A program made the position numbers and the translations under genes. A stretch of DNA of 64,000 nt from an uncultured bacterium (GTDB lineage: Bacteria > Armatimonadota > UBA5829), in assembly GCA_963775535.1 (NCBI GenBank), contig CAVZJH010000057.1, positions 3,818 to 67,817 of the forward strand, in the 5' to 3' direction. Of the stretch, positions 1,886 to 45,042 are shown in pieces (positions within the stretch are counted from its first letter, which is position 1; every line of letters begins with the position of its first letter). The notes under the pieces are model-generated. The model was not told the DNA's origin, did no database searches, and was given only the letters and a program-made list of their open reading frames with translations.

Positions 1886-1907
1886 GCTTTTTGCAGGAGG
1901 ATCTCAA

Positions 1908-3401: not shown

Positions 3402-3438
3402 TACCGCGCGCTTGGGTTCGTGAAGCGGAGATAAGTTT

Positions 3439-15206: not shown

Positions 15207-18200
15207 TTGAGGGTAAAGATCTGTATTCTTATAACTGCGGCGGCCTGTTTGCTTGCCGCGGGCGCGTGTTACGCGCAGGATTTTCACCAGGATTCCTGGG
15301 TTGCAACCGACGCGCTTGGACGCCACCTGCCGACCTATGACGTGGTCGGCCCGGTAAAAACCAACAAGACGGCAGGAATCTTCTACTTCTTGTGGGTGGG
15401 GGAGCAGGGCAATGACGGGCCCTGGGACATCACCAAAATCCTTGCGGCCAACCCTACAAACCCAGCCTGGAATACGTCCGGGTCCTACTATTTCTGGTCC
15501 GAACCGGAACTTAACTATTACCATTCCTATGACACATGGATGATCCAACAGCACTGCAGGATGCTGGAGGATGCTGGGATCGATGTTGTCACTTTCGATG
15601 TAACGAACGGTTACACCTACTCCGATGTGCTCACGCCATTATTAACCACTTACGAGCAAATTCGTGCCGCAGGAGGCACAACCCCGCAGATCATGTTTAT
15701 TTGCAATGAGCCTATAGCCTCGTCCTACGGCTATCCGGCTAATACACCTACCGCACAGTGGCTTTATGACAACCTCTATTCGACGGGTCTTTATAACGAT
15801 CTATGGTATCATCTGCCTGGTGACAGCCGTCCATTGGTTTTGTCTCCGGCTTTATCATCGTCCACCTCCCCTACGATCTACAACTACTTTACGACCAGGT
15901 ACGCCTGGGCATGGAACGGAGGAAAGGCGAGTAACTGGACGTGGCTGGATGACTACCCACAGCAGTATGGCGAAGGACCTACCGGGACCCTCGAGGAACT
16001 TTCCGTTTCTATAGCCGAGCACCCGGTGGCCAGCATTGGCGAGGGTAATCCGAAGAACATAAGCAGAGGACGAAGCTTCCACAACAGCGCCGAACAATCA
16101 CCGCCGCAGTCGGCAGAGGGATTGTTCTTTAACGAGCAATGGGGCCGAGCCCTGTCTGTCAGTCCACCGTACGTGTACATAACATCCTGGAACGAATGGA
16201 TAGCCGGGCGGAGCATATACGAGAGCGGCCAGGGTGACCCACCGTACTTCCTCAGCCAGCCGATGACAAATGGCGAGACATATTTCGTGGACACATACTC
16301 TGAGGAATACAGCCGTGACATCGAGCCGATGTTGGGCGGCCATACTGACGATTACTACTATCAGATGATTGCTAACCTTCGAAGGTATAAGGGAGTCAGG
16401 CCACCTCCGACCATCACGAACGAGCCTATCACCATAGACGGCAGTTTCTCAGACTGGACCAACGTCGCGCCCGAATACGACGATTACTCCGGTGACGCGT
16501 TCAACAGGAACTCCCCATTAGTTGGAACGCCCTCATCAACCACAAACACCACGGGCCGCAACGACTTTACAAAGACGAAAGTAGCCTACGACAGCAACAA
16601 CGTCTACTTCTACGTGCAGACCGTAAACCCGATAACCTCGTATACCGGCACGAACTGGATGATGTTGTTCATAGACTCAGACTGCAACGCCGCCACCGGC
16701 TGGAACGGCTACGACTACCTGGTCGATTTCCCGATCGCGGGCCATCCGATTACAGCGAGTACAACTCCTGTGCTCCAGAATACCGGGGGACAAAATACCA
16801 ACTGGTGGAACTGGACTTTTATGGGCAACGCCACCTATGCCATTAACGGAAATCAGATGGAGATAAGTGTGCCGCGCGCGTACATAGGACAGACCGGTAC
16901 CAATGTGGCATTCGATTTCAAATGGGCCGACAACATGCAGGCGTATAACGTCCTGGAGTTCTCCATAGACGGCGACAGCGCTCCGAACCGAAGGTTCAAC
17001 TATCGCTACGCCGCCATATACCCGGGCCCGCAGTGGGAGTTCGTCATAGATTGCGCCAACAGCGAAATGTCCACCACCACTAACCAGGAAGGCTGGATGA
17101 CCTCCGGCTCATCAAGCGTTTCCAACTACTGCATTACCGGTGGCTGCCTTTCGGGCAATGTTTCTTCGTCGAGCGCTTATGTGACCTCGCCGAGCATTCC
17201 GAATATCGATGCCACGAATAACCACTACATCCACATCAGGATGAGCAACACTGCCGGCACTCAGGCTCAGATCTGGTTCCAGACGACAACAGACCAGACG
17301 TTTACCTCTGCGAAGTCGGTCAGTTTCACTACGACCGACGACGGTCAATTCCACGATTACGTTATCGACATGTCGACCAATTCGCATTGGACTGGTTCCA
17401 CCAACACCATCAGAGTCTACCCGATCAACGCGTCCAGCGGCCTCTTCAATATCGACTTCGTCCGCGTTCTGAAGGATTCTCCGATGTTCGTTGGGCCGGA
17501 TACCACCCCGCCAACAGGAACCGTAAGCATCAATTCGGGAGCAGCCTACACCGGCACTACGGCCGTAACCCTTACTACAACGAGCAGTGATGTCGGCAGC
17601 GGCGTTGCTCAGATGAGGTTTAGTAACGATAATTCCAACTGGAGTGCCTGGGCGCCCGTCGCAACTTCCGCAGCCTGGACGCTGGCGACGGGAGACGGCA
17701 CGCAGAGCGTGTATGCTCAGTTTATGGATGCAGTCGGTAATGTCTCTTCATCAAGCTCTGCGTCCATATTGTTGGATACTACGCCTCCCGTGGGCAGTGT
17801 TACTTACAATTCCAATTCCGCGTACGTATCCTCTACTACTTCTACCGCATATCTCTATATGTCGGCGACGGATGCAGGCAGCGGCCTGTACCAAATGCGA
17901 ATAAGCTCAGACAACGTGAACTGGAGTTCGTGGATGACGTATGCCGCAACCAGGATATGGTCGGTTAGTTCCGGTTATGGAGTCAAGAACGCCTGGGTCC
18001 AGTTCAGCGACAAGGCAGGAAACGTGTCGCAGTCCTGCGAAGCCTCTACATACAAGGTGCAGTATTCCGGGTACAACATAGTCACAGCCAAGGGATTGGG
18101 AGATACGATGACAGTGGGTGTATCCGCAAAGGTGGTCACCGCGATATACGGCGACCGCTTCTATGTTGAGGAGCCGAATAGATCCTCCGGTATTATGGTA

Positions 18201-18326
18201 ATTCCGGCGAACGGCGTGCCTGCTAATCTGGTAATAGGCAATACCGTGGATATCGGCGGCGCCATGACTACGGGAACGGATGGCGAGAGGTATCTGTCAT
18301 CAGCAACCGTAGCCATCAAGAGCTAA
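15207..18326 (+). CDS. Large secreted multidomain protein: N-terminal glycoside-hydrolase-like TIM-barrel domain, two tandem Ig-like repeats, C-terminal FY(V/I)E...R..GI.V module
   Basis: Signal peptide. N-terminal motif set (IFYFLWVGE, YYHSYDTWMIQQHCRMLEDAGIDVVTFDVTNG) shared with the 25594-29167 protein. Two ~95-aa repeats (DTTPP(T/V)G(T/S)V..NS.AY...GSG..QMR.S.DN.NWS.W). C-terminal module is shared with the two beta-helix proteins. Confidence 0.6.
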   Translation: MRVKICILITAAACLLAAGACYAQDFHQDSWVATDALGRHLPTYDVVGPVKTNKTAGIFYFLWVGEQGNDGPWDITKILAANPTNPAWNTSGSYYFWSEPELNYYHSYDTWMIQQHCRMLEDAGIDVVTFDVTNGYTYSDVLTPLLTTYEQIRAAGGTTPQIMFICNEPIASSYGYPANTPTAQWLYDNLYSTGLYNDLWYHLPGDSRPLVLSPALSSSTSPTIYNYFTTRYAWAWNGGKASNWTWLDDYPQQYGEGPTGTLEELSVSIAEHPVASIGEGNPKNISRGRSFHNSAEQSPPQSAEGLFFNEQWGRALSVSPPYVYITSWNEWIAGRSIYESGQGDPPYFLSQPMTNGETYFVDTYSEEYSRDIEPMLGGHTDDYYYQMIANLRRYKGVRPPPTITNEPITIDGSFSDWTNVAPEYDDYSGDAFNRNSPLVGTPSSTTNTTGRNDFTKTKVAYDSNNVYFYVQTVNPITSYTGTNWMMLFIDSDCNAATGWNGYDYLVDFPIAGHPITASTTPVLQNTGGQNTNWWNWTFMGNATYAINGNQMEISVPRAYIGQTGTNVAFDFKWADNMQAYNVLEFSIDGDSAPNRRFNYRYAAIYPGPQWEFVIDCANSEMSTTTNQEGWMTSGSSSVSNYCITGGCLSGNVSSSSAYVTSPSIPNIDATNNHYIHIRMSNTAGTQAQIWFQTTTDQTFTSAKSVSFTTTDDGQFHDYVIDMSTNSHWTGSTNTIRVYPINASSGLFNIDFVRVLKDSPMFVGPDTTPPTGTVSINSGAAYTGTTAVTLTTTSSDVGSGVAQMRFSNDNSNWSAWAPVATSAAWTLATGDGTQSVYAQFMDAVGNVSSSSSASILLDTTPPVGSVTYNSNSAYVSSTTSTAYLYMSATDAGSGLYQMRISSDNVNWSSWMTYAATRIWSVSSGYGVKNAWVQFSDKAGNVSQSCEASTYKVQYSGYNIVTAKGLGDTMTVGVSAKVVTAIYGDRFYVEEPNRSSGIMVIPANGVPANLVIGNTVDIGGAMTTGTDGERYLSSATVAIKS

Positions 18327-18351: not shown

Positions 18352-18383
18352 AAGGCCGTGGGATTCGTCCCACGGCCTTTTTT
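18352..18383 (+). terminator. Rho-independent terminator (AAGGCCGTGGGATTCGTCCCACGGCCTTTTTT)
   Basis: GC-rich 10-bp stem plus a T6 tract, 25 nt after the stop at 18326. Confidence 0.65.
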
Positions 18384-18490
18384 GGTGCGTATTGCCCGTG
18401 TATCTGAAGCCGGCTCTTTAATGCTCTCACACACAGTCGCAGTTTGATCGCAATAGTTCACTAGTTCTCAGAATCCGAAAAAAGTTCACC

Positions 18491-20009
18491 GTAAGAGTTC
18501 AGGATAGGTGAGTATTTGGGGGCTGCACATCTGAAGGCGACAATTTCCATGACAGTATCATCCTTTAGACAAAGGTACTTTTGGTGCCTTTGTCTAAGTG
18601 GGATGTATGAGTGAGTCGGATGGTATTTCCCGAGCAGAGCTCGTGGCCATAATAGTGGAGTTGCGCCGTGCAAACGCCGTCTTGCAGGAGCGGGTGGAGT
18701 TTCTTGAGGCTGAGGTAGAGCGCCTGCGCTCTCAGCTTCCCAGCGGTGGGACGAAAGTTGTGCCGGAGTGGGTCAAGCCAAACCGCAAGGAACGTCGCGA
18801 GGCCGAACGCAGTGAGCGCAAGAAGCGTAAGAGCTCATTTGTACGTCGTCGCGAGATTCCTACCGAGGTCCATGAGCACGCTCTTGAGCAGTGCCCGAAG
18901 TGCGGGCGTAAGCTGTGTGGCGGATGGATACACCGGAGACGTCAGTATGTGGAGATTCCGGAGACTCCGGTGCGCATAGTCGAGCACAGGATCATAAGGC
19001 GCAAATGCGGGGTATGCGGAACACAGTGCACTCCCAAAGTGGATCTTTCGGCGGAGGTGTTGGGCAAAGCACGTGTGGGGGTGAGGCTTATGAGCTTCAT
19101 TGCTTATCTGCACACGGTCTGCCGGGTTCCATTAAGGACGATAAAGGGCCATCTAAAACTGATATATGGCCTGGATTTGGGCCTTGGGGAGCTTTCCGAG
19201 TTACTTCATGCGGTTTCGAAAGCGGCGGAGCCGGAATATGTTTATCTTCTTGACGAGATTCGTGGTTCTCCTGTGGTGAATGCCGATGAGACTGGTTGGC
19301 GCGAAGACGGCATCAACGGATATATATGGAGCTTCTCCACTCCGGAGCTGCGTTACTTTGTATACCGCAAGAGTCGTTCGGGTGAGGTGGCAAAGGAAGT
19401 TTTGGGTGAAGATTTCGATGGGGTTGTAGTCAGTGACTTCTACTGTGGCTACAGCGTCCTTTTGACGCGTCATCAGCGCTGCTGGGTGCATTTCTACCGT
19501 GACCTCAAAAAGCTCGTCGAGGCATATCCATCGGAGGTATCGGTCGGGGAGTGGGTAGACAAGGTTCTGAGCATATACAATCAGGCAAAAGAGTTCTCAA
19601 GCGATGATGAGCGAGTCCGGATAAGGCAGCGGGAGATATTCGAGCAGGTATTGCTTGAAGTTGCCAGTCCATATCTAGGCACTGATAAGCCCCAACGGAT
19701 ATTGGCCCAACGTATCGAGAGGTTCCTGCCGGAGTTATTCATCTTTGTCGAGGACCCACGTGTGCCGTCTGAAAACAATGCTGCCGAGCGGGCAGTTCGA
19801 CCTTGCGTAATAGCTCGAAAGGTCAGTGGCGGAACCCGCTCAGCAAAGGGCTCTGATACAAAGGCAGTCCTAATGAGTATGTTCGGGACGTGGCTGCTCA
19901 GGGGCCAGGACACAATAAGCATGTGCAGGCAAATGCTCATCTCGGCCAATCGTCTCAAATGCCAGGTGACAGACAAAGCACTTCTCTCTCACGTAGCCTG
20001 AACTCTTAC
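18491..20009 (+). mobile_element. Complete IS66-family insertion sequence of the single-ORF (ISBst12-like) type, 1519 bp, with 8-bp target-site duplication
   Basis: Terminal inverted repeats GTAAGAGTTCAGGATAGGTG (18491-18510) and GTAAGAGTTCAGGCTACGTG (reverse complement of 19990-20009) match at 18 of 20 and begin with GTAAG. Flanked by identical AGTTCACC at 18483-18490 and 20010-20017. Single transposase ORF inside. An 11-bp perfect hairpin (TTAGACAAAGG...CCTTTGTCTAA, 18565-18597) abuts the tnp start codon. Confidence 0.85.
18598..20001 (+). CDS. IS66-family transposase (TnpC-like, 467 aa)
   Basis: N-terminal leucine zipper, CPKCG...C..CG zinc-finger, then motifs ADETGW, NGYIWSF, SDFYCGYS, CWVHFYRD, NNAAERAVRPCVIARKVSGGTRS, all characteristic of IS66 TnpC. 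Confidence 0.9.
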   Translation: MGCMSESDGISRAELVAIIVELRRANAVLQERVEFLEAEVERLRSQLPSGGTKVVPEWVKPNRKERREAERSERKKRKSSFVRRREIPTEVHEHALEQCPKCGRKLCGGWIHRRRQYVEIPETPVRIVEHRIIRRKCGVCGTQCTPKVDLSAEVLGKARVGVRLMSFIAYLHTVCRVPLRTIKGHLKLIYGLDLGLGELSELLHAVSKAAEPEYVYLLDEIRGSPVVNADETGWREDGINGYIWSFSTPELRYFVYRKSRSGEVAKEVLGEDFDGVVVSDFYCGYSVLLTRHQRCWVHFYRDLKKLVEAYPSEVSVGEWVDKVLSIYNQAKEFSSDDERVRIRQREIFEQVLLEVASPYLGTDKPQRILAQRIERFLPELFIFVEDPRVPSENNAAERAVRPCVIARKVSGGTRSAKGSDTKAVLMSMFGTWLLRGQDTISMCRQMLISANRLKCQVTDKALLSHVA

Positions 20010-20024
20010 AGTTCACCCGTTCAC

Positions 20025-20053
20025 TTGACAATGACGCGATTGTGGGATACATT
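20025..20053 (+). promoter_or_regulatory. Sigma70-like promoter TTGACA-17-TACATT for the 20133 gene, 16 bp from the IS66 right end
   Basis: Read directly; not tested. The IS insertion point is 8-15 bp upstream of the -35 element. Confidence 0.4.
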
Positions 20054-20132: not shown

Positions 20133-23100
20133 ATGAGTGGCAAGTCGGTTTTAGTATTGTGCCTGGTCGCTGTTTGTCTTGTTTGTTGTGCCTCGCAGGC
20201 GGGCTGCAGCACGTTCTATGTTACCTCGTCCGGAAAGGACACCAACTCCGGTCTTAGTTGGCAGGCTGCCAAGGCGAGCGTCGCGGGCGGCGTCAAGGTC
20301 GCGAGTGCGGGCGATCAGGTCTGGGTCGCCGCGGGGACTTACTCAGGAGGCATCACTGTGAACTCCGGCGTCGCTCTCTACGGCGCTTTCGCCGGGACTG
20401 AAACGCAGCTCAGCCAAAGAAATCTGGCGGCCAACCTTACCGTTCTCCAGGGCGGGGGCAGCGCGGGCAGCGTCGTCACCATTGCCGCCAACGCCACCTC
20501 AGCGACTGTGTTGGACGGGTTCACCATCAGGGATGGCACCGGCACCGTAGGAGGATACTACGGCGTGGACTGCTACGGCGGCGGAGTATACTGCGGCATA
20601 GGAGCTTCTCCTGTCATTTCACACAATATTATTACCTCGAATTGGATAAATGGTTTGTCGTTTGAATATGAAGACGAGGAGATTGACGGATGCGGGTTTG
20701 GCGCAGGTATCTACTGCGATGATGGAAGTCCCGTTATGGCTAATAATTTGATCTTCGACAATGTAGCGGATAGCCAGGGTTACGGTTTCGCGGACGGTTT
20801 TGGAGGAGGCGTTATGTGTCAGGGCGGACAACCGATCATCGTCGGCAACACCATTACGTCTAATACGGGGAATTATGCGCTCGATATTGAAGACACCAAC
20901 TCCAGCACCATTATCAACAACATTGTCGCCTTTAATACCGCGGGGATTTACGAGACGACCTATGGCCCAATAACTATTGGTAGCAACTGTGTGTACGGGA
21001 ATAGGAGCGGCAACTATTATGGGCAGGATTTGACGGGCCAGGACGGTAATATTTCGTACGATCCGCTGTTCAAGTCCACGAACGACGACGACTACCACAT
21101 CAACGCCCTCTCACCATGCTGCAATACCGGCGACGATGCTACTGCCGCTTTATATCCACTGGATCTCTACGGGCAGTCGAGGACACTCGGAGGCCACGCC
21201 GACATGGGTGCGATCGAGTCGGACGGCACGATGTGGCCGGCGACCGTGACGACACCCGTGATCGGACTCGCCTCGGGAGTGCATACAACAGTTCAGTCCG
21301 CAACCGTGACATGCGCTACCGGCGGCGTGACCATACACTACACGCTAAATGGCGTTGACCCGACCGAATCCGATCCCGTGGTCGCGTCCGGATCAAGTGT
21401 AACCATCGACTACTCCGCGACCCTCAAAGTCAAAGCATTCGTGCCGGCTTGGACGCCAAGCGCTGTCTCCTCCGCCTCATATGTGATCCGCGCGCCGGTC
21501 GTAGTGTACGTAGACCACAACGTTCTCTCCACCGTGCAGGATGGAACGTCGTGGTCGACGGCAAAAAAGACAATATCCGCAGGTCTTTCCGCCGTCGTTT
21601 CGGGTGACCAGGTATGGGTAGCGCAAGGAACCTACGTTGAGCAAGTTACGCTGGTAAATGGCGTCGCATTATACGGTGGTTTTCCATCGGGCGGCGGTGA
21701 CTGGAGTTCCCGCACCCCGAAAACGAACCAGACAATTGTTGATGGCAACCAGGAAGGCAGTGTCATAACGTCGCCGTCGGGAGCGAGCGCGACGACGGTT
21801 ATTGATGGATTCACTATCCGAAATGGAGTTCCAAACGGTTTCGGCGACGGCGGAGGGGTGTACTGCTCGTCCTCCTCGCCGACTGTTTCGCACAACACGA
21901 TCGCGGCTAACTACGCCTTTGGGGTTTTCAGTGACCTCTCCTCCTCACCGCAGATTTCAAACAACATTATCACGGGAAACGCCGAGGCCGGAATATACTG
22001 TACCTCAGCGGCAATATTCAATAACTTGATTTCGGGAAACTCTTCAACAAACTGCAGTGGAGGGATAATCTGCCTTGGCAATGCGACCATATATAACAAC
22101 ACTATCACCGGAAACAGCTCAGATAGCCGCGGCGAAGGCGCAGCGATATACTGCGGCGGTGGGTGTCCCACAATATGCAACAACATTGTGGCATTCAATT
22201 CGGCGGGGATCTTCAATGAATCTGGTGGTCCAGTCTTGCGCAATAACTGCGTGTATAACCCGGACGGGATCAACTACATCTATCTGTCGGCGGGCAAAGG
22301 AGACATTCAAGTTGATCCAAAGCTGGTCGCAGTCGCATACGGCCAGGTTCACATCCAGCCGGACTCGCCGTGCGTAGACGCGGGCGATGACAGTGTGGTG
22401 CAGCCGGGGTGGGTCGATATGGATGGGCAGACCAGGATTCAGGGCGCGCATGTGGACATTGGGGCCGACGAATCGGACGGAACAACCTGGACATACGCCC
22501 CCGCGATAGTGCGTGTGAGTCCCGCCGGAAATGATTCCAATGACGGCTCCAGTTGGGCTTTGGCAAAGAAATCGGTCCAGGCGGGCATAAACGTTGCGTC
22601 TTTAGTCGGTGGCGAGGTATGGGTCGGGGCAGGTACTTACAACGAGTGTTTAATTCTTACCCCTTATGCCTACCTCTACGGCGGTTTTGCCGGAACTGAA
22701 ACCTCAAGGGACCAGCGCAACTGGAATACCAACGCCTCTATTCTTGACGGCGGGGGCGTTGGCGGCGTGGTCATCTCAGAGACCGGTCACAAGGTCACAG
22801 CCAGCGGGATAGATGGTTTCACAATTCGACATGGAAACGGCTACGGAATATGCTGCGCGGGTTCTTCGCCGACCATTGCTAACAACACTATCACGGCAAA
22901 CACCACGAGCGACAGCGGTAGTGGCACAATATACTGCTACGGCTCCTCACCGACAATTCTCGGTAACATTGTCTCAGGAAACACGGCTTCGAGTAAGTTG
23001 GATTTTTGCGCCGGTGCAATCTACTGCGAGGAATCCTCACCGACCATCTCAAACAACACGATCTCGTCAAATTCCGGGAGCGGCGGCGGCAGCACTATAA

Positions 23101-24458
23101 TCTACTGCGATGATTGCTCGCCAACTATCTCGAACAACAATATCACGGCAAACACCGCCGCTGGCAACGGCGGAGCGATATATTGCTGGGATTTCTCCCC
23201 GACGGTGATCTCGAACAATAGTATCACGGCAAATAGCGCAAGTGGCGACGGTGGCGCAATTTACTGCCAGGGCGGTCAGGTCACCATATGTAACAACACA
23301 ATCGAGTCGAACAGTGCGAACTGCGGCGGCGCGATATATTGCTGCGGTAGTTCTCTGGCAACAATCTCAAACAACACAATTGCGTCAAACAAAGCGAGCT
23401 GCGGCGGTGGGATATACACCTGCGACTCCTCTGCGGCGGTCTCAAACAACACGATCGCGGCAAACACTGCAGGTACCAGCGGCGGAGGGATATACTGCAG
23501 TAACTCATCCTCGCCGAATGTCTCCAACAACATATTGGCGTTCAACTCGTCTGGAGTATATAACTCATCGAGTTCTCCAACTCTGCGCAACAACGATGTC
23601 TACAATCCCAGCGGAGCGAACTACACAGGGTTGTCGGCGGGAACGGGGGATATCTCAGCTGATCCGATGTTCGTGGACTCTGCTGGTGGAGATTACGACA
23701 TAGCGGCAGGCTCTCCGTGCATCGACGCCGGTTGGAACGGCGCCCCGGACATCGGGACTGTGGATATACACGGAAACCCGCGCATAATCAATTCTATTAT
23801 CGATATCGGAGAGGATGAGTGGCCCTACACAGCAAACGGCATCCAAAACACGAAGCACGCTGCCTCCGGCGCGCTTGCTTACATTCACGCCGGGATAGTC
23901 AGCGCCGTCTTTGATGACTGCTTCTACATCGAATGCGCCAACCGCACCACCGGGATTCGAGTAGTGAGTTCAGCGTCCGGCATTACGGTGGGAACGAAAG
24001 TGGACGTCACGGGAACGGCGGAGACTAATGATGACGGAGAGCTGTACGTCAACGCAAGCTCAGTCGAGTCAATTGGGAGTGGCGCGGTTGCTCCTGTCAT
24101 GTTGAGTGGCCGCTGCGTTGGCGGCGGCTCGCTTGGACTGCAGGGCGGCGTCTGGAAAGATCAATGGACCCTCACTGACGGTGGAACCTGGGGGCAGCAG
24201 TGCCTGCCTGCCTGCGGCCTGAACAATATCGGGCTTCTCGTCAGGATTAGCGGCAAATACACACCTGTTGATGACCACACATTCACCGTAGACGATGGCA
24301 GCGGCGAACCTGTAAAGTGCACCGTCCCCGATGGTGTCATTTTAGGTTCGGGCTGGACGTATCTTAGCGTAACCGGTATTTCGAGCTGCGAGATGATCGA
24401 CGGTGAGCCGCACCGGCTGGTTCGGGTTCGAACGGCCGGCGATATCGTGGCTTACTAG
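20133..24458 (+). CDS. Giant secreted right-handed beta-helix (PbH1 repeat) protein, 1441 aa, built from three DUF1565-like head + PbH1 units plus a ~230-aa C-terminal region
   Basis: Signal peptide. Three occurrences of the DGSSW..AKK..QAG....GDQVWVA.GTY head motif at about aa 30, 470 and 790. Dozens of ~22-aa repeats (SPTISNNTI.ANSA..GGAIYC). C-terminal region ends ...HRLVRVRTAGDIVAY. Confidence 0.75.
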   Translation: MSGKSVLVLCLVAVCLVCCASQAGCSTFYVTSSGKDTNSGLSWQAAKASVAGGVKVASAGDQVWVAAGTYSGGITVNSGVALYGAFAGTETQLSQRNLAANLTVLQGGGSAGSVVTIAANATSATVLDGFTIRDGTGTVGGYYGVDCYGGGVYCGIGASPVISHNIITSNWINGLSFEYEDEEIDGCGFGAGIYCDDGSPVMANNLIFDNVADSQGYGFADGFGGGVMCQGGQPIIVGNTITSNTGNYALDIEDTNSSTIINNIVAFNTAGIYETTYGPITIGSNCVYGNRSGNYYGQDLTGQDGNISYDPLFKSTNDDDYHINALSPCCNTGDDATAALYPLDLYGQSRTLGGHADMGAIESDGTMWPATVTTPVIGLASGVHTTVQSATVTCATGGVTIHYTLNGVDPTESDPVVASGSSVTIDYSATLKVKAFVPAWTPSAVSSASYVIRAPVVVYVDHNVLSTVQDGTSWSTAKKTISAGLSAVVSGDQVWVAQGTYVEQVTLVNGVALYGGFPSGGGDWSSRTPKTNQTIVDGNQEGSVITSPSGASATTVIDGFTIRNGVPNGFGDGGGVYCSSSSPTVSHNTIAANYAFGVFSDLSSSPQISNNIITGNAEAGIYCTSAAIFNNLISGNSSTNCSGGIICLGNATIYNNTITGNSSDSRGEGAAIYCGGGCPTICNNIVAFNSAGIFNESGGPVLRNNCVYNPDGINYIYLSAGKGDIQVDPKLVAVAYGQVHIQPDSPCVDAGDDSVVQPGWVDMDGQTRIQGAHVDIGADESDGTTWTYAPAIVRVSPAGNDSNDGSSWALAKKSVQAGINVASLVGGEVWVGAGTYNECLILTPYAYLYGGFAGTETSRDQRNWNTNASILDGGGVGGVVISETGHKVTASGIDGFTIRHGNGYGICCAGSSPTIANNTITANTTSDSGSGTIYCYGSSPTILGNIVSGNTASSKLDFCAGAIYCEESSPTISNNTISSNSGSGGGSTIIYCDDCSPTISNNNITANTAAGNGGAIYCWDFSPTVISNNSITANSASGDGGAIYCQGGQVTICNNTIESNSANCGGAIYCCGSSLATISNNTIASNKASCGGGIYTCDSSAAVSNNTIAANTAGTSGGGIYCSNSSSPNVSNNILAFNSSGVYNSSSSPTLRNNDVYNPSGANYTGLSAGTGDISADPMFVDSAGGDYDIAAGSPCIDAGWNGAPDIGTVDIHGNPRIINSIIDIGEDEWPYTANGIQNTKHAASGALAYIHAGIVSAVFDDCFYIECANRTTGIRVVSSASGITVGTKVDVTGTAETNDDGELYVNASSVESIGSGAVAPVMLSGRCVGGGSLGLQGGVWKDQWTLTDGGTWGQQCLPACGLNNIGLLVRISGKYTPVDDHTFTVDDGSGEPVKCTVPDGVILGSGWTYLSVTGISSCEMIDGEPHRLVRVRTAGDIVAY

Positions 24459-25593: not shown

Positions 25594-28500
25594 CTACTTC
25601 TTTGTCTTATCCACAACCGGCGCCGGTTCCGCCGCGATTGCCGGCATATTGGCGCGCTCCAACGTAATCGCCACGATTTTCATGTCGGTGTTCTTCGGCA
25701 GGGTTAGGCTCGCCAGCGTCTTCGCGGGATCGAGCTGGATCGTGTAATGGTAGAGATAGCAGTTCGTCCCGATCTCATCGCCGCCGTGGCTGTGGCGATG
25801 GCGAATAAGATAACCTACCTGCTCGCCGTGCTTGGGACCCTCCCCCCAGTCGCTCATCTTGATCGGCGCGACTGCCGCAGAGCCGCTGTAGTTGAGCGAA
25901 ATATCTCCCGAAGCGTCACCGTTGGACGATGCTGCGAGGATGTGGAGCGCGACATAGTTCGTGTTCTCAACATCTACCTTCTGACCGCTGCATGCCACGG
26001 CGTTGTTCTTTTCTTCCGCCGACTTCTCGGGATAGAGGAAACTTATGCGTCCATCGGGATGGGGTGCGCGGTCCCAGTTGTAGCCGGAGGGGTAAACCTG
26101 GCTTGCCATCTCTGTGGCGCTGGCGTCGGGCGGCAGGTATTCCGACGGAAAGCTGGAGCCTTTGCCGTCGAAATCGCCAACCGTTCTGTTCACATCCGGG
26201 CTTGCCGCGCTGATGTCGTATAACTTACTCAGGTCAACGAAGGCCAGTTTGCCGTTGTTGATCTCGATACTCACCGGAAGGATGTCGCCCCCCCGTGTAA
26301 TCGGAAGAGTGGAGAGCCACTCATCGTCGATCATGATGTCCCACACAAGCACGTATTGACCGTCGTACTTAGGCAGCGCAACCTTTGCGGTAACAACCGT
26401 GGGCATTTCCGGCTGAAGATTCGCCGGGAGTGGCGTCGAAGGGTTGTCCCACTGCATGAGAGTGCCGTCTACGTGGTACCAGTGATAACCGATCCTGGTT
26501 CGCTTGCGGTCCCACGCAGTGACGCCGTCGTTCTTGATAACGACCTTCACATCAACGACCTGGCCGGCCACCAGCTTCGGCGGAATGTTACAGTCCGCTA
26601 TCCTTGCGCCGTAGTCAGAATCGAAAATGTCCACTACGCGGTCGAGCGTATTCGAATTGAGCTCTAAAAACCACTTGTCGCCGCTGAATATATCGAATCG
26701 GAGCTGATAGCTCCAGGGATAGTCCTGCTTCCAGCTCGGGACAAGGCTCCTGTCGGGCTGCGACAGGTTCAGGTCGACCACAAACTCGGCAATCTCCCCC
26801 GGCTTGCAGTCCTTGAGGAGAATCGCCCGGACATCTCTTATCGGAACCTCTTCCTGCATTTCGTTCGGGTTATCGTGAGTATAATTGGCCACCTTAAACA
26901 GCCTGCATCCCAGCTTGGTAACGCCCTTGGGCCAGACTTGGGAACCGTCGTTGCGCGCCCGCACAACCGCGGCATAACTCTGGCCGGACACCATCATCTC
27001 CGGGGCATCGCACGAAAGATAAGTCGCGGACCACTCAGGCGTCTTCCCAATAACGGTCGGCACTATGAGCGCCTGGCTTCCGAACGCCGAGAACCACTTG
27101 TTATCGGCAAGCCGAACCATCTCAAAACGCAGCTCGCAGTTGCCTTCCGGGATCGGCGTCCCGGCCGCGCTCATTGGCGCGATCCCGATGTTCACCCTGA
27201 TTGCTTCGCCCGGCTGCACATCTCTTTCCAGAGGCCGTTTGATCTTGCTGTCTCCCAGGAACCGGCCGCTCTTATACCATCTGTAGGACAAGCCAAAGCC
27301 GTCAGAGACTCGCCATTGCGAATTGCCGGTGTTTCTGATGGTTAGTTCGGCCTGGGCAAACTGACCGGGAGCCACCGTCTTTGGCACATTATAGCTCAGG
27401 AACTGAGCGTCGAAGTCCCGGTTTCCGAGGAAGCGCTTCACGTTGGCGCGTGTCGCGTCGATATACTTCCGGCCATATTCACGGCTCGCGCACATATCGC
27501 TGGCCTCGTGAAGCTCGTCCCAGCCATCGCACACGACCCAGAGCGGCGGCTTCTGGAGGATGGAGAGCCAGTCTTTTTCATATGTATCCCCGCCGAGCCT
27601 GGGTCTCATCAGCGCATTGCCCGCCTGAGCTACCGCAGAGTTGTCGAAACCGGCCCCGACGGATGCTACGCGAATACGCCCGCCTTCGTCCTGCTTCGCT
27701 CCAAGTCCCGCGCCGTAGGTGCAGATGCCGTCGCATACCTGAACCTTGGGTTCGTAGTCTTTCGATGCGATCCAGACCAGTTTGCGCCCGAAGTCGTGCT
27801 CGTATTTTTCATTGCAGTATTGCATAAAGCTGGAATCGAAATCGGAGAAAAAGCTGCTGGTATAGAGCACCACTATATCGGCCTGCCCGCCCGCGTCGGG
27901 CTTACCGGTCTGAGCGGTTGCGCGATAGTCAACAGGAATCCGGTCATAGAAATCCTTGATCATGCCATAGAAGGTGCGCTCGACCTCTTCGTTCTTTAGA
28001 TTCGGGCTTTGCGCCGTAGGCAGCCTGCATCGCGGTAGTGTCGAAGAACATCGCCACCAGGGGATATTGCTTGCCCTCATCGCGCAGTTCGTCGAGAGCG
28101 GAGATCATGCAGTCCAAACCCTTGTCCGCGAAACCTGCCCGGTCGGCCTTGTCGCCCCAGTAGACCGGCAGAACCACGTCTATGCCGGCGGCGATGATAT
28201 CGGAAAGCTGTTCCTTGTGCCACTGTACTCTATCGTAACTGAACCATGGTCCGGCGTTTCGGACGGGCGAGTCCTGAAGCTGCAGGGCTCCGTCAGGTCC
28301 CACGATGTGGCTGTAAGGCGCAGACTTTCGCGGATCCGCCTGATACCAGTAGAAATAGTGCGTCATCACCATTTTGTGTGGTGGAAACTTAGCCTCGTAG
28401 ACGAAACCTTCGGGCACCGGAAGGTCAATGGCGAACGATGTGTTGGCTGTCCACTCTTTATTGGAAATTATGCCGTCGATCAGAGGAGGACGGACTATGG

Positions 28501-29167
28501 TCTTGGAGGAGAGGATCTTCTCCGCGCTCATCGTTGCAGCGCCGAACGTATACTGCGCGAACACGAGGTTCACCCACTTGGCGGGACACATAGTATCATC
28601 TTCAGTCTTCACACGCGGCGAGAGGCTTACAAACTCGCCGCTCTTGTCGCCGTGCCGGTGAACCAGGATGTTGAAACTTACCATGTCGCCGAACTTGGGC
28701 GTCGACGTTTTCATCGCCAGCCAGGGAATAGCTATCTCCACCGTGTAACCCATGTCGATATCGTCGCTGTTGTTGAGCGTTCCCTGGACCGTGCAGCCGT
28801 ATTTGAACGACCACACAGGCACCGGCTCGAATGTTCCCTTGTCCGTTCCCACCTGGAACTGCGCGCCGCCCGCGGCGGAGACTGTCATATTGATGCACGC
28901 GGGGGTTACGCGAGCCGAGTGCTTGTCGTTTGCCTCCACGAATACCGAGACCGAGTCATCTCCCGAAACATCCGCATTGGGAGTGGTATGTGTGCCCTCG
29001 ACATCGGGGCAGTCCACTTTGAATGCGAGGTAGAAGTATGTTTCGTCCCAATTGGTGTAGCACTGGACCCGGTCTTTGGTCACGACCTCCTGGGCCAGGG
29101 CATACGTTGCGCAAAGCATCAATAGCGCACACATGAAGACGCAGACAAACAGCTTTTTGAGCTCCAT
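25594..29167 (-). CDS. Large secreted multidomain protein: CBM9/DOMON-like N-domain, GH-like TIM-barrel domain paralogous to that of the 15207 gene, three or more CARDB/Ig-like beta-sandwich repeats; one frameshift near 27950-28080
   Basis: Signal peptide at 29167. TYFYLAFKVDCPD (CBM9-like). HYFYWYQADP...FSYDRVQWHKEQLSDIIAAGIDVVLPVYWGD matches the 15207 protein's motifs. Repeated modules (VAPGQFAQAELTIRNTGNSQWR / MVSGQSYAAVVRARNDGSQVWPK / LVAGQVVDVKVVIKNDGVTAWDR). The ORFs at 27944-29167 and 25594-28080 overlap in different frames. Confidence 0.6.
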
Positions 29168-31319: not shown

Positions 31320-34300
31320 ATGATGAGATTCAGGGTGCGGATGCTAAGCGCGTGTGCCGTAATGCTTCTTTCAATGCTGTCATCATGCGTGCAAGCGGGC
31401 AAGATCGTCTATGTCGACAGTTCAACAGCGTCGGCGGGTGACGGACTTACCTGGGCGACGGCAAAGACAACGGTCACTGCCGGGCTTGCCGCATCGGCGT
31501 CAGGCGATCAGGTCTGGGTGGCGCAGGGAACGTATGTTGGGCTCATTCACGCTGGTAAACGGCGTTGCGTTATACGGCGGTTTTCCGTCGGGCGGCGGAG
31601 ACTGGAGTTCCCGCGACTCTAAGGCCAATGTGACAATCCTGGACGGCGGCCAGGGTGGCAGCGTGGTCACTTCGCCGCCCGGAGCGACCGCAACCATAGA
31701 TGGCTTCACAATCCGAAATGGCAGCAACTTCGGAATAAACTGCGTCCGCATCTCCTGGCCGACGATTTCCAACAACATTATTATTGGAAACAGCGGCGGC
31801 GGGATTAACTGCGGCGTCTCCTCGGCGACTATTTGCAACAACACTATCACGGGGAACAGCGCAACCAATAACGGCGGTGGGATTAACTGCGGCACTGCCT
31901 CCTCGGTGACGATATCCGACAACACCATCACGGGAAACAGCAGTTACGATGCCGCGATATACTGCTACAGCGTCACATCGGCAGCCATCTCCAACAACAC
32001 CATCACTGGGAACAGCAGCTGTGGGATTTGCTGCAACTCGTCCTCTTCGGCGACCATTTCCAACAACAACATTACTGGAAACGGCCCGACATCTGACGGC
32101 GGCGGCATATACTGTTATAGTTCCTCCTCGCCGACGATTTGCGACAACACGATCGGCGCGAACAGCTCAGAATATGGCGGCGGGATTTACTGTGACTCGT
32201 CCTCTTCGCCGACGATCACCAACAACACTATCACCGCAAACAACGCAGACAGTGGCGGCGGGATATACAGCGCTTGCTCAGGCCACTCTTCATTGAAGAT
32301 CTCCAACAACATCGTGTCTTTCAATTCATCAGGGATATACAGCGGTGGAGGTTCTCTCGTCTTGAGGAACAACTGCGTCTACAACCCCGATGGCGCCAAC
32401 TATTCCGGGTTATCAGCGGGAATGGGTGACATTCAGGTTGATCCCAAGCTGGTCGCTGTTCAATATGGCCAGCTCCATATCCAGCCGGACTCGCCGTGCG
32501 TAGATGCCGGTTACGACGCCGCGGTGCAGCCGGAATGGGTGGATATGGACGGACAGCCACGCATTCAAGGCGCGCATGTCGATATCGGCGCGGACGAATC
32601 GGATGGGACTGCGTGGACGTTTTGCTCCCACGGTGGTGCGCGTGAGCGCTACAGGAAACGATGCCAATGATGGTTCCAGTTGGTGCTTAGCAAAGAAAAC
32701 CGTGCAGGCGGGAATCAATGCGGCATCGGCCGCCGGTGGTGACGTGTGGGTTGCTGCCGGAACTTACAACGAGCAGGTAACGCTCACGGATTATGCTTAC
32801 CTCTATGGAGGCTTCGCCGGAACTGAATCCGCCGCGGACCAGCGGAACTTCAGTGCCAACAGCACAATTCTTGATGGCGGAGGAGGAGAGAGCGTTGTCG
32901 TCATGGAGGTCGGAAACAAGGCGAGCGGGGTAGATGGGTTCACAATCCGTAACGGAAACGCTGACTACTTTGGCGCTATAGTCTGCTATTGCTCCTCGCC
33001 GACTGTTTCCAACAACATAGTCACGGGAAACAAGGAAAGCGGTATATGGTGCTCGAATTCCTCGGCAACGATTTCCAATAACATCATCACGGGAAACAGT
33101 GAAGACCCAACGTACTCCGGCGTCGGCGGCGGCATATACTGCTGGAGCTCATCGCCGACGATCTCCAACAATACCATTACCGGAAACAGCGCAGTTGATG
33201 GCGGCGGGATAGAATGCGACGGCCCGGCGATTATTTCCAATAATATCATCACAGGAAACAGCGCAAATGCCGGCGCAGGAATAGAGTGTGACTGGTGTTC
33301 GGCGATTATTTCCAATAACATCATCGCGGGCAACAACGCAGGAAGCAGCGGTGTCGGCGGCGGTATATACTGCTGCGACGACTCCTCGACGCCTATTTCC
33401 AACAACACAATCACAGCAAACAGCGCATACGAAGGCGGCGGTATATACTGCGACGACTCCTCTTCGCCACCGGTTTCCAACAACGTAGTGTCTTTCAATT
33501 CGTCGGGACTCGATAGCGGCGGCGGTTCCCCGGTCATGAGGAACAACTGCGTCTATAACCCAGATGGGGCCAACTACTCCGGGTTATCAGCGGGAACGGG
33601 TGACATTCAGGTCGATCCAAAGTTTGTCAGCTTGACCACAGGAGATTATCATTTAACCGCCGGTTCACCGTGCATCAATGCCGGCTGGAACGCAGCGCCT
33701 GGAATTGGATCGGTCGATATGGACGGGAACCCCAGGATATTGCCGGCTGGTGGAACCGTGGATATCGGGTGCTATGAATATCTCGCTCAGATGAGCGGCT
33801 CCGGGCAGGCTAAGGCTGGCTCTCAACAAGTAGCAGTTAAGCTGGCCGGCAAACCTGTAACCGCGGTATTCGCTGGGGAGTTCTACATAGAAGATACTGA
33901 CCGCTGCGGCGGGATTAAAGTCGTATCAAGTCAAGCTGTAAATCCCGGCGACCTCGTGACGATAACTGGAAATACGGCTCCGGATAATGGAGAATGTGCG
34001 CTTTACCCGGCGTCCATCTCCGTCACCCCGGGCGCGCCGAGCAATGTGCCGGGGGCGCTGCTGCTGACCAATCGCTGCATTGGTGGTGGAGCTTTCTTCT
34101 GGAACGCGAACGGCAACGTCTGCGGTCAGGAAGGGGATCACGGATGGGTTCGGCTTGAACAACATCGGTCTTCTGGTTCGGGTTTGCGGGACATTTGCCT
34201 ATGTCGACAGCCAAACGTTCACCCTCGATGATGGCAGCGGCGCAGTGGTGAAGTGGACCGTGCCAGACGGCGTTACCTTGAGCTCGACCTTGACCTATGC

Positions 34301-34394
34301 CGGCGTGACCGGTATCTCGTCCTGCGAGATCGTCGGCAGTGAACTGCACCGGCTCATCCGGGTTCGAACACAGAGCGATATAGTAAGTTATTAG
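31320..34394 (+). pseudogene. Paralogue of the 20133 beta-helix gene (two DUF1565-like head + PbH1 units plus the same C-terminal region), interrupted by three single-base frameshifts (~31535, ~32598, ~34100-34160)
   Basis: About 75 percent identity to units 2 and 3 of the 20133 protein over long stretches. Translation switches frame 3, then 1, then 2, then 3. Two junctions reconstructed by eye: an extra base in GTTGGGCTCATTCACGCTGG, and TTTT versus TTT at ~32598. Ends ...HRLIRVRTQSDIVSY. Either a genuine pseudogene or assembly indels. Confidence 0.65.
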
Positions 34395-36355: not shown

Positions 36356-37849
36356 ATGGAGTTAACGGATTTGTCGGACGAACAAGTTCAAGCACAACAG
36401 GAACAACCACCACAACAGCCTCCCACGTCAAACGGAAAACGGCGCAAACGGATCATTATCCCCATCGTGCTGACGATTATCATCGCAGCGCTAGTCTATT
36501 GGTTGTTGAGCAGAGGAAAAGTGTCCACCGATGATGCGCAGGTTGACGGTCACCTCGTGCCGATTACCGCTCGCGTGTCAGGCTACATAGATACGGTTGA
36601 TGTAGACGACAATCAGTTCGTGGATAGTGGGCAACTCCTGGTACAGCTCGATCGCCGGGACCTGGTCACCAAGCTCAGGCAGGCGACGGCCGACCTCGCC
36701 ACTCAACGCGCGCAGGCAGCGGCGGCAGCCCAGCAGGTTACGGTCACTCAGCGCACGGCTCCATCCAGCGAGCGTCAGGCGGGAGCAGGCGTTGCCGTTG
36801 CGAGCGGCGGTGTAGCGGCCGCCACGAACCAGGTCCGCGTGACCCAGGCCCAGGCTGAATCCGCCGATGCAGGTGTGCAGGCCGCGCGGGAAGCTGTGGC
36901 GAGTGCTCGAAGCGATCTTTCCGCCGCCACCTCTCAGATCGAAGTGGCTGAAGCCGCGGTGAAGCAGGATCAGGACGACGTGGTATCCGCCCAAGCTCAA
37001 GCGAAGAAGACAGCCGCTGACGTCGCCAGATACCGCGAATTGTTTGCAGCAGGGGCAACGTCAAAACAGCAACTGGACAGCGTAGAAGCGGACAACACGG
37101 CGGCACAGTCGACGCTGGCGGCGGATAAACACAAAGTCCTCGGCGCTCAGGCACTTCTTAACCAGGCGCGGGCGCGCAGAAACGCCGCTGAGATTGCGGT
37201 CAGGGAAGCAAAAGACCGGCTTGCATCCGCAGTCGATGCTGCCACGCAGGCGCGAGCGGGAGTTAAAGTCGCCCGGTCAAACCTGGAGCAAGCTCAAGGC
37301 CAGCTCAAATCCGCTCAAGCGGCGGCTTCCGGCGCGCTGACGGCCCCGCAGCAGATAGCCATCAGCCGGGCCCAGAACAGGGCCGCGGCCGCGCGAATAA
37401 AGCAGTCTTTGGCCAATGTGCGCAACGCGACCCTGCAGTTGTCCTACGCCCAGATCACTTCACCGGTCACCGGAGTAGTAAGTCAGAAGACTGCGGAGCC
37501 GGGACAATACGTGCAGCCGGGTCAAATGGTGATGTCGGTCGTGCCGCTGTCGAACGTTTGGGTTGTTGCCAATTTCAAGGAAACGCAAGTCGGCAATATG
37601 CGCCCCGGGCAGCGAGCAGTGGTTACGGTCGATTCTTATCCCGGGCATGAGTTCCGCGGAAGGGTCCAGAGCATCGGGGCGGCAACCGGCGCTGAGTTCA
37701 GCCTGCTTCCGCCGGAGAACGCCACAGGGAACTTCGTGAAGGTCGTCCAGCGCATCCCGGTAAAGATCGTCTTCGACGGGCCTGTGCCCAGGAGATTTGT
37801 CCTGCGCCCGGGGCAGAATGTGGAAGCGACCGTATATCTGCAAATGTGA
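36356..37849 (+). CDS. HlyD/EmrA-type membrane fusion protein with very long Ala/Gln-rich coiled-coil (497 aa)
   Basis: Single N-terminal TM (IIIPIVLTIIIAALVYWLL), ~280-aa coiled-coil, C-terminal beta-barrel motifs (ITSPVTGVVS...GQMVMSVVPLSNVWVVANF...GRVQSIG). No cognate permease adjacent. Confidence 0.75.
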   Translation: MELTDLSDEQVQAQQEQPPQQPPTSNGKRRKRIIIPIVLTIIIAALVYWLLSRGKVSTDDAQVDGHLVPITARVSGYIDTVDVDDNQFVDSGQLLVQLDRRDLVTKLRQATADLATQRAQAAAAAQQVTVTQRTAPSSERQAGAGVAVASGGVAAATNQVRVTQAQAESADAGVQAAREAVASARSDLSAATSQIEVAEAAVKQDQDDVVSAQAQAKKTAADVARYRELFAAGATSKQQLDSVEADNTAAQSTLAADKHKVLGAQALLNQARARRNAAEIAVREAKDRLASAVDAATQARAGVKVARSNLEQAQGQLKSAQAAASGALTAPQQIAISRAQNRAAAARIKQSLANVRNATLQLSYAQITSPVTGVVSQKTAEPGQYVQPGQMVMSVVPLSNVWVVANFKETQVGNMRPGQRAVVTVDSYPGHEFRGRVQSIGAATGAEFSLLPPENATGNFVKVVQRIPVKIVFDGPVPRRFVLRPGQNVEATVYLQM

Positions 37850-37983
37850 CAACTCCGGCAATCGGTTTGACTTGGCTGTCAATCAGGAGTAGAATACCTC
37901 TTGGTCAACTGAAGAGCTGTCCACCAATAAGTTCACTGTAGCGCGGCCCACAACCGCGCTATGTTCTTGAAGGAGCCACCACA

Positions 37984-44945: not shown

Positions 44946-45042
44946 ACTCATCCCAAAACCCTCTTCTCGCCTCGCCTTTTCCGTGTTACAATGATTGCAC
45001 ATGAGCTGGTTTGCTCTGGGAGAAACAAAACGGAGGGTCGCG

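Follow-up and report, generated by a model that had tools for sequence, protein, structure and literature searches.

Does a C-terminal region shared by large Armatimonadota proteins sort or anchor them at the cell surface? Members of this phylum are widespread and poorly cultured, and to our knowledge almost nothing is known of how they build that surface. The question arose from a 64-kb stretch of DNA (the window) in which the proteins encoded from positions 20133 and 31320 have similar tails. The original prediction took the region at 23790-24458 for a candidate sorting or anchoring domain; these coordinates are correct, and all of the motifs quoted from the tails (FYIE, GI(R/K)VVSS, GLNNIGLLVR, DDGSG, VTGISSCE and RVRT..DIV(A/S)Y) are present. 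The first gene (20133..24458, + strand), defined from its open reading frame and translation, encodes a predicted exported protein of 1441 aa with three parallel beta-helix units (Pfam Beta_helix, E 9e-37; NosD, 2e-23; NCBIfam choice_anch_Q, 2e-16, in three stretches) and a signal-peptide-like N-terminus, MSGKSVLVLCLVAVCLVCCASQAG. Its C-terminus is formed by module copy 1 (23811..24455, + strand; 215 aa), recognized by the family HMM with 225 bits (E 4e-68). The structured part of the tail is ~205-215 aa long and begins right after the choice-of-anchor Q match, which ends near 23811. The AF2 model divides it, on the + strand, into a first barrel at about 23874-24080, a Gly/Trp-rich linker at about 24081-24236, and a second barrel at about 24237-24455 with the ending ...HRLVRVRTAGDIVAY.

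The second tail belongs to a paralogous gene with two beta-helix units at 31320..34394 (+ strand), which had been treated as a single open reading frame. The ORF list and frame inspection show it spread over four frames, separated by three single-base (+1) homopolymer insertions (GGG at ~31539, TTTT at ~32620 and GGGG at ~34134). Once repaired, its product has 1023 aa, a signal peptide and module copy 2, and shares 51% identity over its whole length (blastp; about 1000 aa) with residues 445-1441 of the 20133 protein. Module copy 2 (33806..34394, + strand) is itself interrupted: barrel 1 and the linker lie in frame +2 until ~34134 (HMM positions 6-114, E 2e-20), and barrel 2 lies in frame +3 (positions 105-196, E 1e-36) and ends ...HRLIRVRTQSDIVSY. 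The 20133 tail aligned by tblastn with 41% identity over 152 aa in frame +2 (33641-34093) and 66% over 80 aa in frame +3 (34152-34391), at a joint E of 3e-50. Because all of the breaks are +1 insertions in homopolymers, and because two housekeeping genes within the window, XFP phosphoketolase and mfd, are likewise split by frame breaks, we suspect indel errors in the assembly; the gene is probably not a true pseudogene. Further putative frameshifts in the window lie at ~9400 and between 50216 and 50288. The close alignment of the two tails was upheld and is much stronger than chance would give, but the divergence claimed for the remainder of the proteins was not, with identity per 50-residue window of 48-86% in the beta-helix, 36-37% in the first half of the tail and 53-64% in the second half. 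The two proteins are full-length paralogues, with the tail as their least conserved part, and the pair alone is therefore no proof of a module. That proof is supplied by the 15207 protein and by the databases.

The gene at 15207..18326 (+ strand), identified from its translation, encodes an unrelated, putatively exported protein of 1039 aa with one barrel at its end and, as had been noticed, closes with the first half of the module. This barrel-1-only copy (18078..18323, + strand; …AIYGDRFYVEEPNRSSGIMV…GERYLSSATVAIKS) matches positions 4-80 of the 197 in the HMM (E 4e-15) and the 20133 tail with 30% identity over 83 aa (tblastn, E 1.4e-9). The protein has no Pfam match, and contains two sub-threshold OmpL47-type barrel stretches. 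Downstream of its barrel 1, neither tblastn nor the HMM revealed a barrel-2 remnant. Open reading frames that stop after barrel 1 were also found in two other loci (L009 and L052). A complete IS66-family element, with inverted repeats and an 8-bp target duplication (AGTTCACC), occupies 18492-20010. Truncation of the gene by this element was considered and rejected: the element is complete and lies 165 bp past the stop codon. The gene ends at a stop codon of its own, behind which a terminator with a 12-bp stem lies at 18352-18379, and was therefore not cut by the downstream insertion. A six-frame HMM search of the 64-kb window detected no module copy beyond those in the 20133, 31320 and 15207 genes.

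Our profile search recovered 5509 representative protein clusters (clustered at 50% identity) at E<=1e-3 and 1910 at E<=1e-30, and 310 module copies were confirmed in GTDB species-representative genomes, with at least 10 in the single MAG CAVQDB01. The organism-named loci among the 80 that were kept were all from Armatimonadota, as were all but one of the organism-named protein matches. No Pfam-A or NCBIfam model recognizes the module, in agreement with the earlier remark that it belongs to no known family, and our literature search returned nothing relevant on a C-terminal or OB-fold surface domain in Armatimonadota. The module is a real and previously unmodelled domain family of ~205 residues that appears to be restricted to this phylum. 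One unannotated domain is present on thousands of large, predicted exported Armatimonadota proteins, with ten or more per genome; such abundance therefore makes it a ready bioinformatic handle on the surface and secreted proteome of the phylum, and it clearly qualifies for a model of its own in Pfam or NCBIfam.

The predicted structure indicates which kind of domain this is. The AF2 model of copy 1 (mf7e2de114401; pLDDT 86, pTM 0.84) places strands at residues 22-90 and 143-214, with low confidence at 108-123, and shows a pair of five-stranded barrels with a conserved Gly/Asp/Trp linker between them. The strands of each barrel follow a long-short-short-long-long order, with strand pLDDT above 90. 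A second model, of the module part of the canonical member P0004 (residues 108-326), agrees with the window model, with block-mean pLDDT of 81-98 including the linker hairpin. Every significant Foldseek match in the PDB was an OB-fold, and the top match of the window model was Escherichia coli YgiW (1nnx; BOF family; E 7e-4, TM 0.70 on the target), which was also the sole match of the family profile among PDB sequences (E 0.085). The recurrent sub-threshold Pfam matches were likewise to OB families only (tRNA_anti-codon, Rep_fac-A_3, RMI2 and BOF). Both halves are therefore predicted to be closed five-stranded barrels of OB topology, as in the OB-fold superfamily. Comparison of the barrel-1 and barrel-2 profiles with hhalign (probability 93%, E 2.6e-7) identifies the halves, at the level of sequence profiles, as homologous products of an internal duplication; barrel 1 is able to occur alone at a C-terminus. 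In our reading of the OB topology, the best-conserved stretches, FYxE..DR..GIRV and F.IDDGSG..V, would run along strand 2, through the 2-3 loop and into strand 3, the face with which OB-folds usually bind. The linker motif LGGGDW...GQxGV is also conserved and forms a small hairpin in typical members. A conserved VKC-SSC disulfide was rejected, as both cysteines occur together in only 94 of 262 modules.

Foldseek neighbors of the module also include the OB domains of RPA, SSB, HIN and the anticodon-binding part of aminoacyl-tRNA synthetases, and one homolog is named by NCBI as a single stranded DNA-binding domain-containing protein. These matches would be consistent with a nucleic-acid-binding domain that ties exported proteins to the extracellular DNA of a biofilm matrix, but OB-folds are indistinguishable to Foldseek at such weak E-values, the carriers are apparently exported, and the modules are acidic (mean net charge -4.1; 80% net negative), unlike DNA-binding OB domains. 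We consider DNA binding very improbable.

The position of the module along its carriers bears on the proposed signal function. Within the window, the module or its first half is always C-terminal, as had been claimed, but this does not extend to the whole family: of 248 carriers, 182 (73%) have the module at their very C-terminal end, 32 (13%) have more than 60 residues after it, often a whole enzyme-like domain such as the FGE-sulfatase-like or GH3-like domains downstream of some copies, and 21 (8%) have two or three full copies, in tandem or dispersed. The N-terminus was signal-like in 85 of 126 complete carriers by a crude hydrophobic-run test. The other domains of the carriers are diverse (102 Pfam families across 58 proteins) and are mostly non-catalytic repeats, including beta-helix/NosD, RCC1, SBBP, Ig, LRR and LVIVD. 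Upstream of the module, 15 of these 58 proteins have a choice-of-anchor domain (type Q in 13 and type B in 2), NCBIfam families whose name, as we take it, refers to the differing C-terminal anchors that follow them in other lineages.

A C-terminal secretion or sorting domain for a hypothetical outer-membrane export or attachment machinery of Armatimonadota, analogous to the C-terminal domains of the type IX secretion system (T9SS), would account for several of these features: the frequent terminal position, with tails such as ...RVRT.GDIVAY and protein ends usually 3-4 residues after the conserved R.R...DI motif, the many copies per genome, the mostly signal-bearing and diverse passengers within one phylum, and the upstream choice-of-anchor domains. 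The internal and multiple copies and the existence of a barrel-1-only ending nevertheless argue against it, as does the absence of any match to sorting-signal models in the window proteins or, among the best 25 of 37 families listed, in the 58 carriers. Nor do the carrier tails contain a transmembrane or hydrophobic stretch, an Arg cluster or a basic tail, and no partner, processing or machinery gene recurs beside the module across 80 loci inspected with as much as 6 kb of flanking sequence on either side. A C-terminal aromatic as a BAM-type signal was rejected, since carriers end in differing residues (P, L, Y, Q, F and others), and lipoprotein anchoring is uncommon, with a strict lipobox in 1 and a permissive one in 10 of 126 carriers. 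A secretion or sorting signal is therefore unlikely, and the T9SS-like version of it distinctly improbable. The part of the original prediction that stands is a portable module on diverse, mostly signal-bearing carriers, of which it is the last domain in about three quarters. The observation named beforehand as counting against it, a ligand-binding type of fold found at internal positions elsewhere, was borne out by half. An anchoring or retention domain survives as a working hypothesis.

A ligand-binding or surface-retention module is more likely than a cleaved secretion signal, and a binding domain is preferred because some carriers have the module internally or in two or three copies, and because its best-conserved stretches would fall on the OB binding face. 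From the computed homology, fold prediction, duplication, distribution and architectures, we infer a portable extracytoplasmic domain for binding or retention with a common ligand, likely part of the envelope or matrix of the cell itself; we place even confidence in this reading. The carriers would leave the cytoplasm through the Sec pathway by means of their N-terminal signal peptides, and the module, a rigid unit of ~205 residues in which the LGGGDW...GQxGV linker joins the two duplicated barrels, would then act as a non-catalytic binder of one common ligand. An extracytoplasmic site and a common ligand are suggested because of the signal-peptide-like N-termini, the diverse and mostly non-enzymatic partners, and the choice-of-anchor Q and B domains upstream, and also because BOF proteins are reported to be periplasmic and to have the porins OmpF and OmpD as well as OmpA as interaction partners (PMC6370654). 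The likeliest ligand would be a glycan or, as for the periplasmic BOF proteins, an abundant outer-membrane protein, and its binding would retain at the cell surface a range of otherwise unrelated domains, among them beta-helix, propeller, LRR, Ig and enzyme domains.

OB-folds are also classic oligosaccharide binders, and the barrels could instead recognize a polysaccharide or other polymer in the environment and deliver enzymes and adhesins there rather than to the cell's own envelope, in the manner of carbohydrate-binding modules (CBMs). Such substrate targeting would be consistent with the carriers that are enzymes, including a CbhB-like exoglucanase, PQQ sugar dehydrogenases, a C1 peptidase, an alkaline phosphatase, and proteins in which the module is followed by large hydrolase-like regions, some of them GH3-like. 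The internal and repeated copies typical of CBMs, the genes for CBM9-like and glycoside-hydrolase proteins that neighbor the module within the window, and the absence of within-genome homogenization of module copies point in the same direction. However, the partners are mostly non-catalytic repeats rather than carbohydrate-active enzymes, no known CBM family in Pfam matches the module, and one conserved binding face on sulfatase-maturase-like, peptidase, phosphatase and dehydrogenase proteins argues against a single substrate. We therefore regard substrate targeting as possible but doubtful. Should envelope docking prove true, the module would offer a surface-display tool and a way to find its receptor; as no more than a CBM-like OB domain, the new family would still join the short list of extracytoplasmic OB-folds.

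Among known systems, the T9SS C-terminal domain of Bacteroidota (Por_Secre_tail, TIGR04183) resembles the module as a folded C-terminal domain on unrelated surface or secreted proteins with signal peptides, confined to one lineage and repeated many times in a genome. The T9SS domain measures about 70-100 aa and is strictly terminal, single and cleaved, whereas the module is about twice that size, consists of two predicted OB barrels, and may be internal or repeated. No TIGR04183/Por_Secre_tail match was found in the window proteins (Pfam, NCBIfam) or in the 58 carriers among the best 25 of 37 families listed, and no T9SS component (PorK/L/M/N/U/V/SprA) was seen within the 64-kb window or the retrieved loci; the sole PorK/GldK match among the families listed was to the FGE-sulfatase-type domain of one carrier. 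The autotransporter (T5SS) beta-domain, a single C-terminal membrane barrel of 12 strands and about 250-300 aa, also differs from two small barrels predicted to be soluble that exist in internal and tandem copies, and autotransporter models had no match in the window proteins (Pfam, NCBIfam). The tripartite sorting signals (LPXTG, PEP-CTERM and MYXO-CTERM) are short and combine a signature motif, a transmembrane helix and an Arg cluster (bioRxiv 10.1101/2023.06.07.544157). The module has none of these three elements, but shares with the sorting-signal attributes described by Haft a position near the C-terminus, multiple copies per genome and N-terminal signal peptides (10.1101/2023.06.07.544157), and likewise the unrelated passengers (at least 10 copies in CAVQDB01, 85 of 126 signal-like N-termini, 102 Pfam families in 58 proteins).

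The BOF family (PF04076; E. coli YgiW, Salmonella YdeI and Vibrio cholerae SipA) shares with the module a five-stranded OB barrel that, for the module, is predicted to lie outside the cytoplasm, and a common motif pattern, hydrophobic-x-[FY]-[IV]-x-D-x-SG-x-I-x-V. Cationic ligands are predicted for BOF proteins (PMC6370654), which, together with their reported porin and OmpA interactions, fits by analogy an envelope-docking role of the module. BOF proteins are stand-alone, single-barrel stress proteins of ~110-130 aa, whereas the module is a duplicated barrel with a linker, fused to very large multi-domain proteins that reach more than 2000 aa. The module is also confined to Armatimonadota, and its similarity to BOF falls under every threshold (E 0.085-0.1), the BOF model matching only 2 of 26 module members (best E 0.1) and none at its curated threshold.

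The closest architectural behavior, mostly terminal, sometimes internal and in one to three copies, is that of SLH domains, CWB2 repeats, LysM and choline-binding repeats. These portable and often terminal or repeated modules hold diverse proteins non-covalently on an envelope polymer, and are best known from monoderm or S-layer-bearing bacteria. Their folds and sequences are unrelated to those of the module, and the likeness is a functional analogy only. We tentatively suggest that the module might be the recognition tag of an Armatimonadota-specific surface-display system, in which all carriers would dock on one dedicated envelope receptor or glycan, non-covalently or after processing, much as in SLH/SCWP or T9SS-CTD/A-LPS but by means of another fold.

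A tblastn search of the window with the last 261 residues of the 1441-codon open reading frame at 20133-24458 (plus strand), whose 3' end is region 23790-24458, matched the end of the 31320 gene in two frames (33641-34093, 41% identity over 152 aa, and 34152-34391, 66% over 80 aa; joint E 3e-50) and the end of the protein encoded at 15207-18326 (30% identity over 83 aa, E 1.4e-9). The tail similarity is real and far beyond chance. A family HMM run over the six frames of the window recovered three copies and no fourth, confirming both the common tail put forward in the original prediction and the observation that the 15207 protein carries the first half of the module only. Other putative exported proteins, encoded at 27944-29167 (minus), 44991-46415 (plus) and 25594-28080 (minus), include CBM9-like domains (1.4e-9, 7e-6) and an N_BRCA1_IG-like domain; these three lack the OB module, which is thus not on every exported protein of the neighbourhood.

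The 31320 gene, taken at the outset to encode a single protein, is not one open reading frame; its pieces (31320-31622, 31411-32670, 32504-34231 and 34080-34394) lie in four frames. At every break a homopolymer has gained one base (GGG near 31539, TTTT near 32620, GGGG near 34134), and without the three extra bases the gene reads through as 1023 aa, signal peptide included. The XFP phosphoketolase gene is likewise split (8399-9493 and 9253-10779, with one base missing near 9400), as is mfd/TRCF, in two open reading frames (49257-50288 and 50216-52804) that overlap at 50216-50288. So many frame breaks within 64 kb point to indel errors of assembly more than to pseudogenes; the assembly is probably indel-prone and the split genes are probably not dead. 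Over its full length the repaired 31320 protein is 51% identical to residues 445-1441 of the 20133 protein, and in 50-residue windows identity is 48-86% in the beta-helix parts, 36-37% in the first half of the tail and 53-64% in the second. Judged from this alignment, the two proteins are whole-length paralogues in which the tail is the least conserved part and not an island of conservation, contrary to the close tail alignment despite divergence elsewhere that had been described. The case for modularity rests on the unrelated 15207 protein and on the databases, not on the paralogous pair.

The 20133 protein starts with what resembles a signal peptide and contains three parallel beta-helix units (Pfam Beta_helix 9e-37, NosD 2e-23), and the NCBIfam choice-of-anchor Q model matches it in three stretches, the last of which stops near codon 1226 (window 23811; last 252 residues scanned). 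Both beta-helix proteins (20133-24458 and 31320-34394) consist of repeated units of about 450 aa, three in the former and two in the latter, each ordered as an N-terminal cap (…DGSSW..AK..IQ.G…GD.VWV..GTY), parallel beta-helix repeats and a choice-of-anchor Q motif; a CHB_HEX_C_1/Fn3_assoc domain (residues 380-450) follows the first unit of the 20133 protein.

The 15207 gene encodes a 1039-aa exported protein. It has its own stop codon (18324-18326), and a terminator whose stem is 12 bp long lies beyond (18352-18379); the IS66-family element downstream is intergenic, so truncation by the insertion was ruled out and the ending after the first barrel is genuine architecture. Further open reading frames, at the module-bearing loci L009 and L052, end in the same way. 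The insertion sequence is complete (18492-20010), with terminal inverted repeats of 22-25 nt starting GTAAGAG, an 8-bp target duplication, AGTTCACC, at 18484-18491 and 20011-20018, and a single transposase open reading frame (18598-20001; DDE_Tnp_IS66, 1.9e-40). It lies 123 bp upstream of the 20133 start codon, and a promoter-like TTGACA-17-TACATT occurs at 20025-20053, just past its right end. A Pfam scan of the 15207 protein gave no match; two tandem stretches at about residues 786-865 weakly resemble OmpL47-type barrel domains, and the N-terminal 400 aa or so, which fall in no recognised family, might be a glycoside hydrolase, a guess from sequence pattern.

An AF2 model of window 23811-24455, built on a 26-sequence alignment, had a mean pLDDT of 86 and a pTM of 0.84; its two barrels (residues 22-90 and 143-214) have five strands each, and confidence is low in the linker (108-123). 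In the canonical member P0004 the module was modelled with block-mean pLDDT of 81-98, and the conserved linker (LGGGDW...GQxGV) was confidently placed with a small hairpin. Foldseek searches of the PDB with both models returned OB-folds only: the top match of the window model was the periplasmic YgiW of E. coli (1nnx, BOF family; E 7e-4, TM 0.70 on target), and other matches were tandem HIN domains, RPA and RMI2 subunits and aminoacyl-tRNA-synthetase anticodon-binding domains. Independent agreement with the modelled fold came from the family profile, whose sole match among all PDB sequences was YgiW (E 0.085), and from recurrent sub-threshold Pfam matches among members, all to OB families (tRNA_anti-codon, Rep_fac-A_3, RMI2, BOF). 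The two barrel halves matched each other in profile-profile comparison (probability 93%, E 2.6e-7), which implies that one barrel was duplicated within the module. Neither Pfam-A nor NCBIfam has a model that was significant on the module, in keeping with the initial remark that it was not recognised as a known family, and NCBI descriptive names of carriers, where given, derive from their other domains.

With the one sequence from the window as query, a word-indexed search turned up 25 relatives. The family profile, run exhaustively against 1.84 billion cluster representatives, matched 5509 proteins at E<=1e-3, of which 1910 also passed E<=1e-30; 310 module copies were confirmed in GTDB species-representative genomes. 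Organism-named loci among the best 80 were all Armatimonadota MAGs, one of which holds at least 10 copies. The window itself is from Armatimonadota, with nucleotide matches to such MAGs (37938-40184, 75% identity to one; 61962-62392, 77% identity to another). NCBI-named protein matches were all Armatimonadota except P0236, a clear family member on a 2.9-kb contig labelled 'Candidatus Marsarchaeota archaeon', which may be a mis-binned Armatimonadota fragment and, if genuine, would be the sole occurrence seen outside the phylum. The module defines a discrete tandem OB-fold domain family that appears restricted to Armatimonadota. Copies within a genome were not more similar than copies between genomes (38.9% versus 38.0%).

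The original prediction held that the module is always C-terminal, as it is in the window. Among 248 carriers it ends within 12 residues of the C-terminus in 182, is followed by 13-60 residues in 22 and by more than 60 in 32, and is matched only partially in 12; 21 carry two or three full copies, and in genomic open reading frames it is terminal in 69 of 102 module-bearing segments. Proteins with terminal modules usually end 3-4 residues past the conserved R.R...DI motif, with a variable last residue. In 15 of the 32 internal cases the module is followed by an FGE-sulfatase-like domain; large domains of other kinds, GH3-like ones among them, are also found after it. An exported fusion in which the tandem OB module immediately precedes a C-terminal FGE-sulfatase domain (SUMF1-like, PF03781; end ...GFRLAR) recurs elsewhere in Armatimonadota (loci L010, L026, L037, L049, L054 and L076; proteins P0186, P0190, P0191, P0193 and others). 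Under a crude hydrophobic-run test the N-terminus of most complete carriers resembles a signal peptide; few carriers have a lipobox. The module is usually, not always, the last domain of multi-domain proteins whose export would be Sec-dependent. Flanks of 80 loci, up to 6 kb on each side, contained no recurrent gene family. A true sorting or secretion signal, half of what was first envisaged, is therefore unlikely: copies that are internal or in tandem, the ending after a single barrel, the module's size and fold, the lack of tripartite features as Haft defines them (10.1101/2023.06.07.544157) and the absence of an adjacent machinery gene from these flanks all count against it. At its left end (446-6945) the window contains an operon of a TolC-like OEP, a HlyD-type adaptor and an AcrB-type RND pump, with a second HlyD-family adaptor at 36356-37849; these genes are efflux-type and show no obvious connection with the carriers of the module.

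The module would instead act outside the cytoplasm as a non-catalytic binding unit. Conservation is strongest in FYxE..DR..GIRV, GER, LGGGD, GQxG, GLNNIGLLV, DDGSG and VTGISS, which, on our reading of OB topology, would lie in both barrels on strands 2 and 3 and the loop joining them, in the linker and at the start of barrel 2; these two strands and their loop form the usual OB binding face. The cysteine pair of the module showed no coupling. Modules are acidic (mean net charge -4.1, 80% net negative), which argues against nucleic-acid binding and makes DNA as the ligand very improbable. Partner domains span 102 Pfam families across 58 proteins, including Beta_helix/NosD, RCC1, SBBP and PD40 propellers, Ig, LRR, LVIVD and fn3, with choice-of-anchor Q in 13 of the 58 and choice-of-anchor B in two. 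Choice-of-anchor domains precede C-terminal anchors in other lineages. Because the same conserved face occurs on unrelated, mostly non-enzymatic partners and the module stands after choice-of-anchor domains, retention of carriers on a common envelope or matrix ligand is the most economical reading, with about an even chance of being right, and it would preserve the anchoring half of the original proposal. The main rival, CBM-like targeting to a substrate, is possible but rather doubtful; enzyme fusions and internal copies speak for it.

This abundant, previously unannotated domain marks part of the exported proteome of Armatimonadota, with a common fold and a putative function. It falls outside T9SS C-terminal domains, tripartite sorting signals, known CBM families and autotransporter barrels. 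Within the OB-fold superfamily BOF is structurally nearest, yet membership fails on sequence threshold and architecture; BOF proteins are reported to be periplasmic, to interact with OmpA and the porins OmpF and OmpD, and to be predicted binders of cationic ligands (PMC6370654). The module is best regarded as a new family, so far unmodelled, within that superfamily, and in its mode of working it would most resemble portable surface-retention or binding modules, for example SLH, CWB2, LysM and CBMs.
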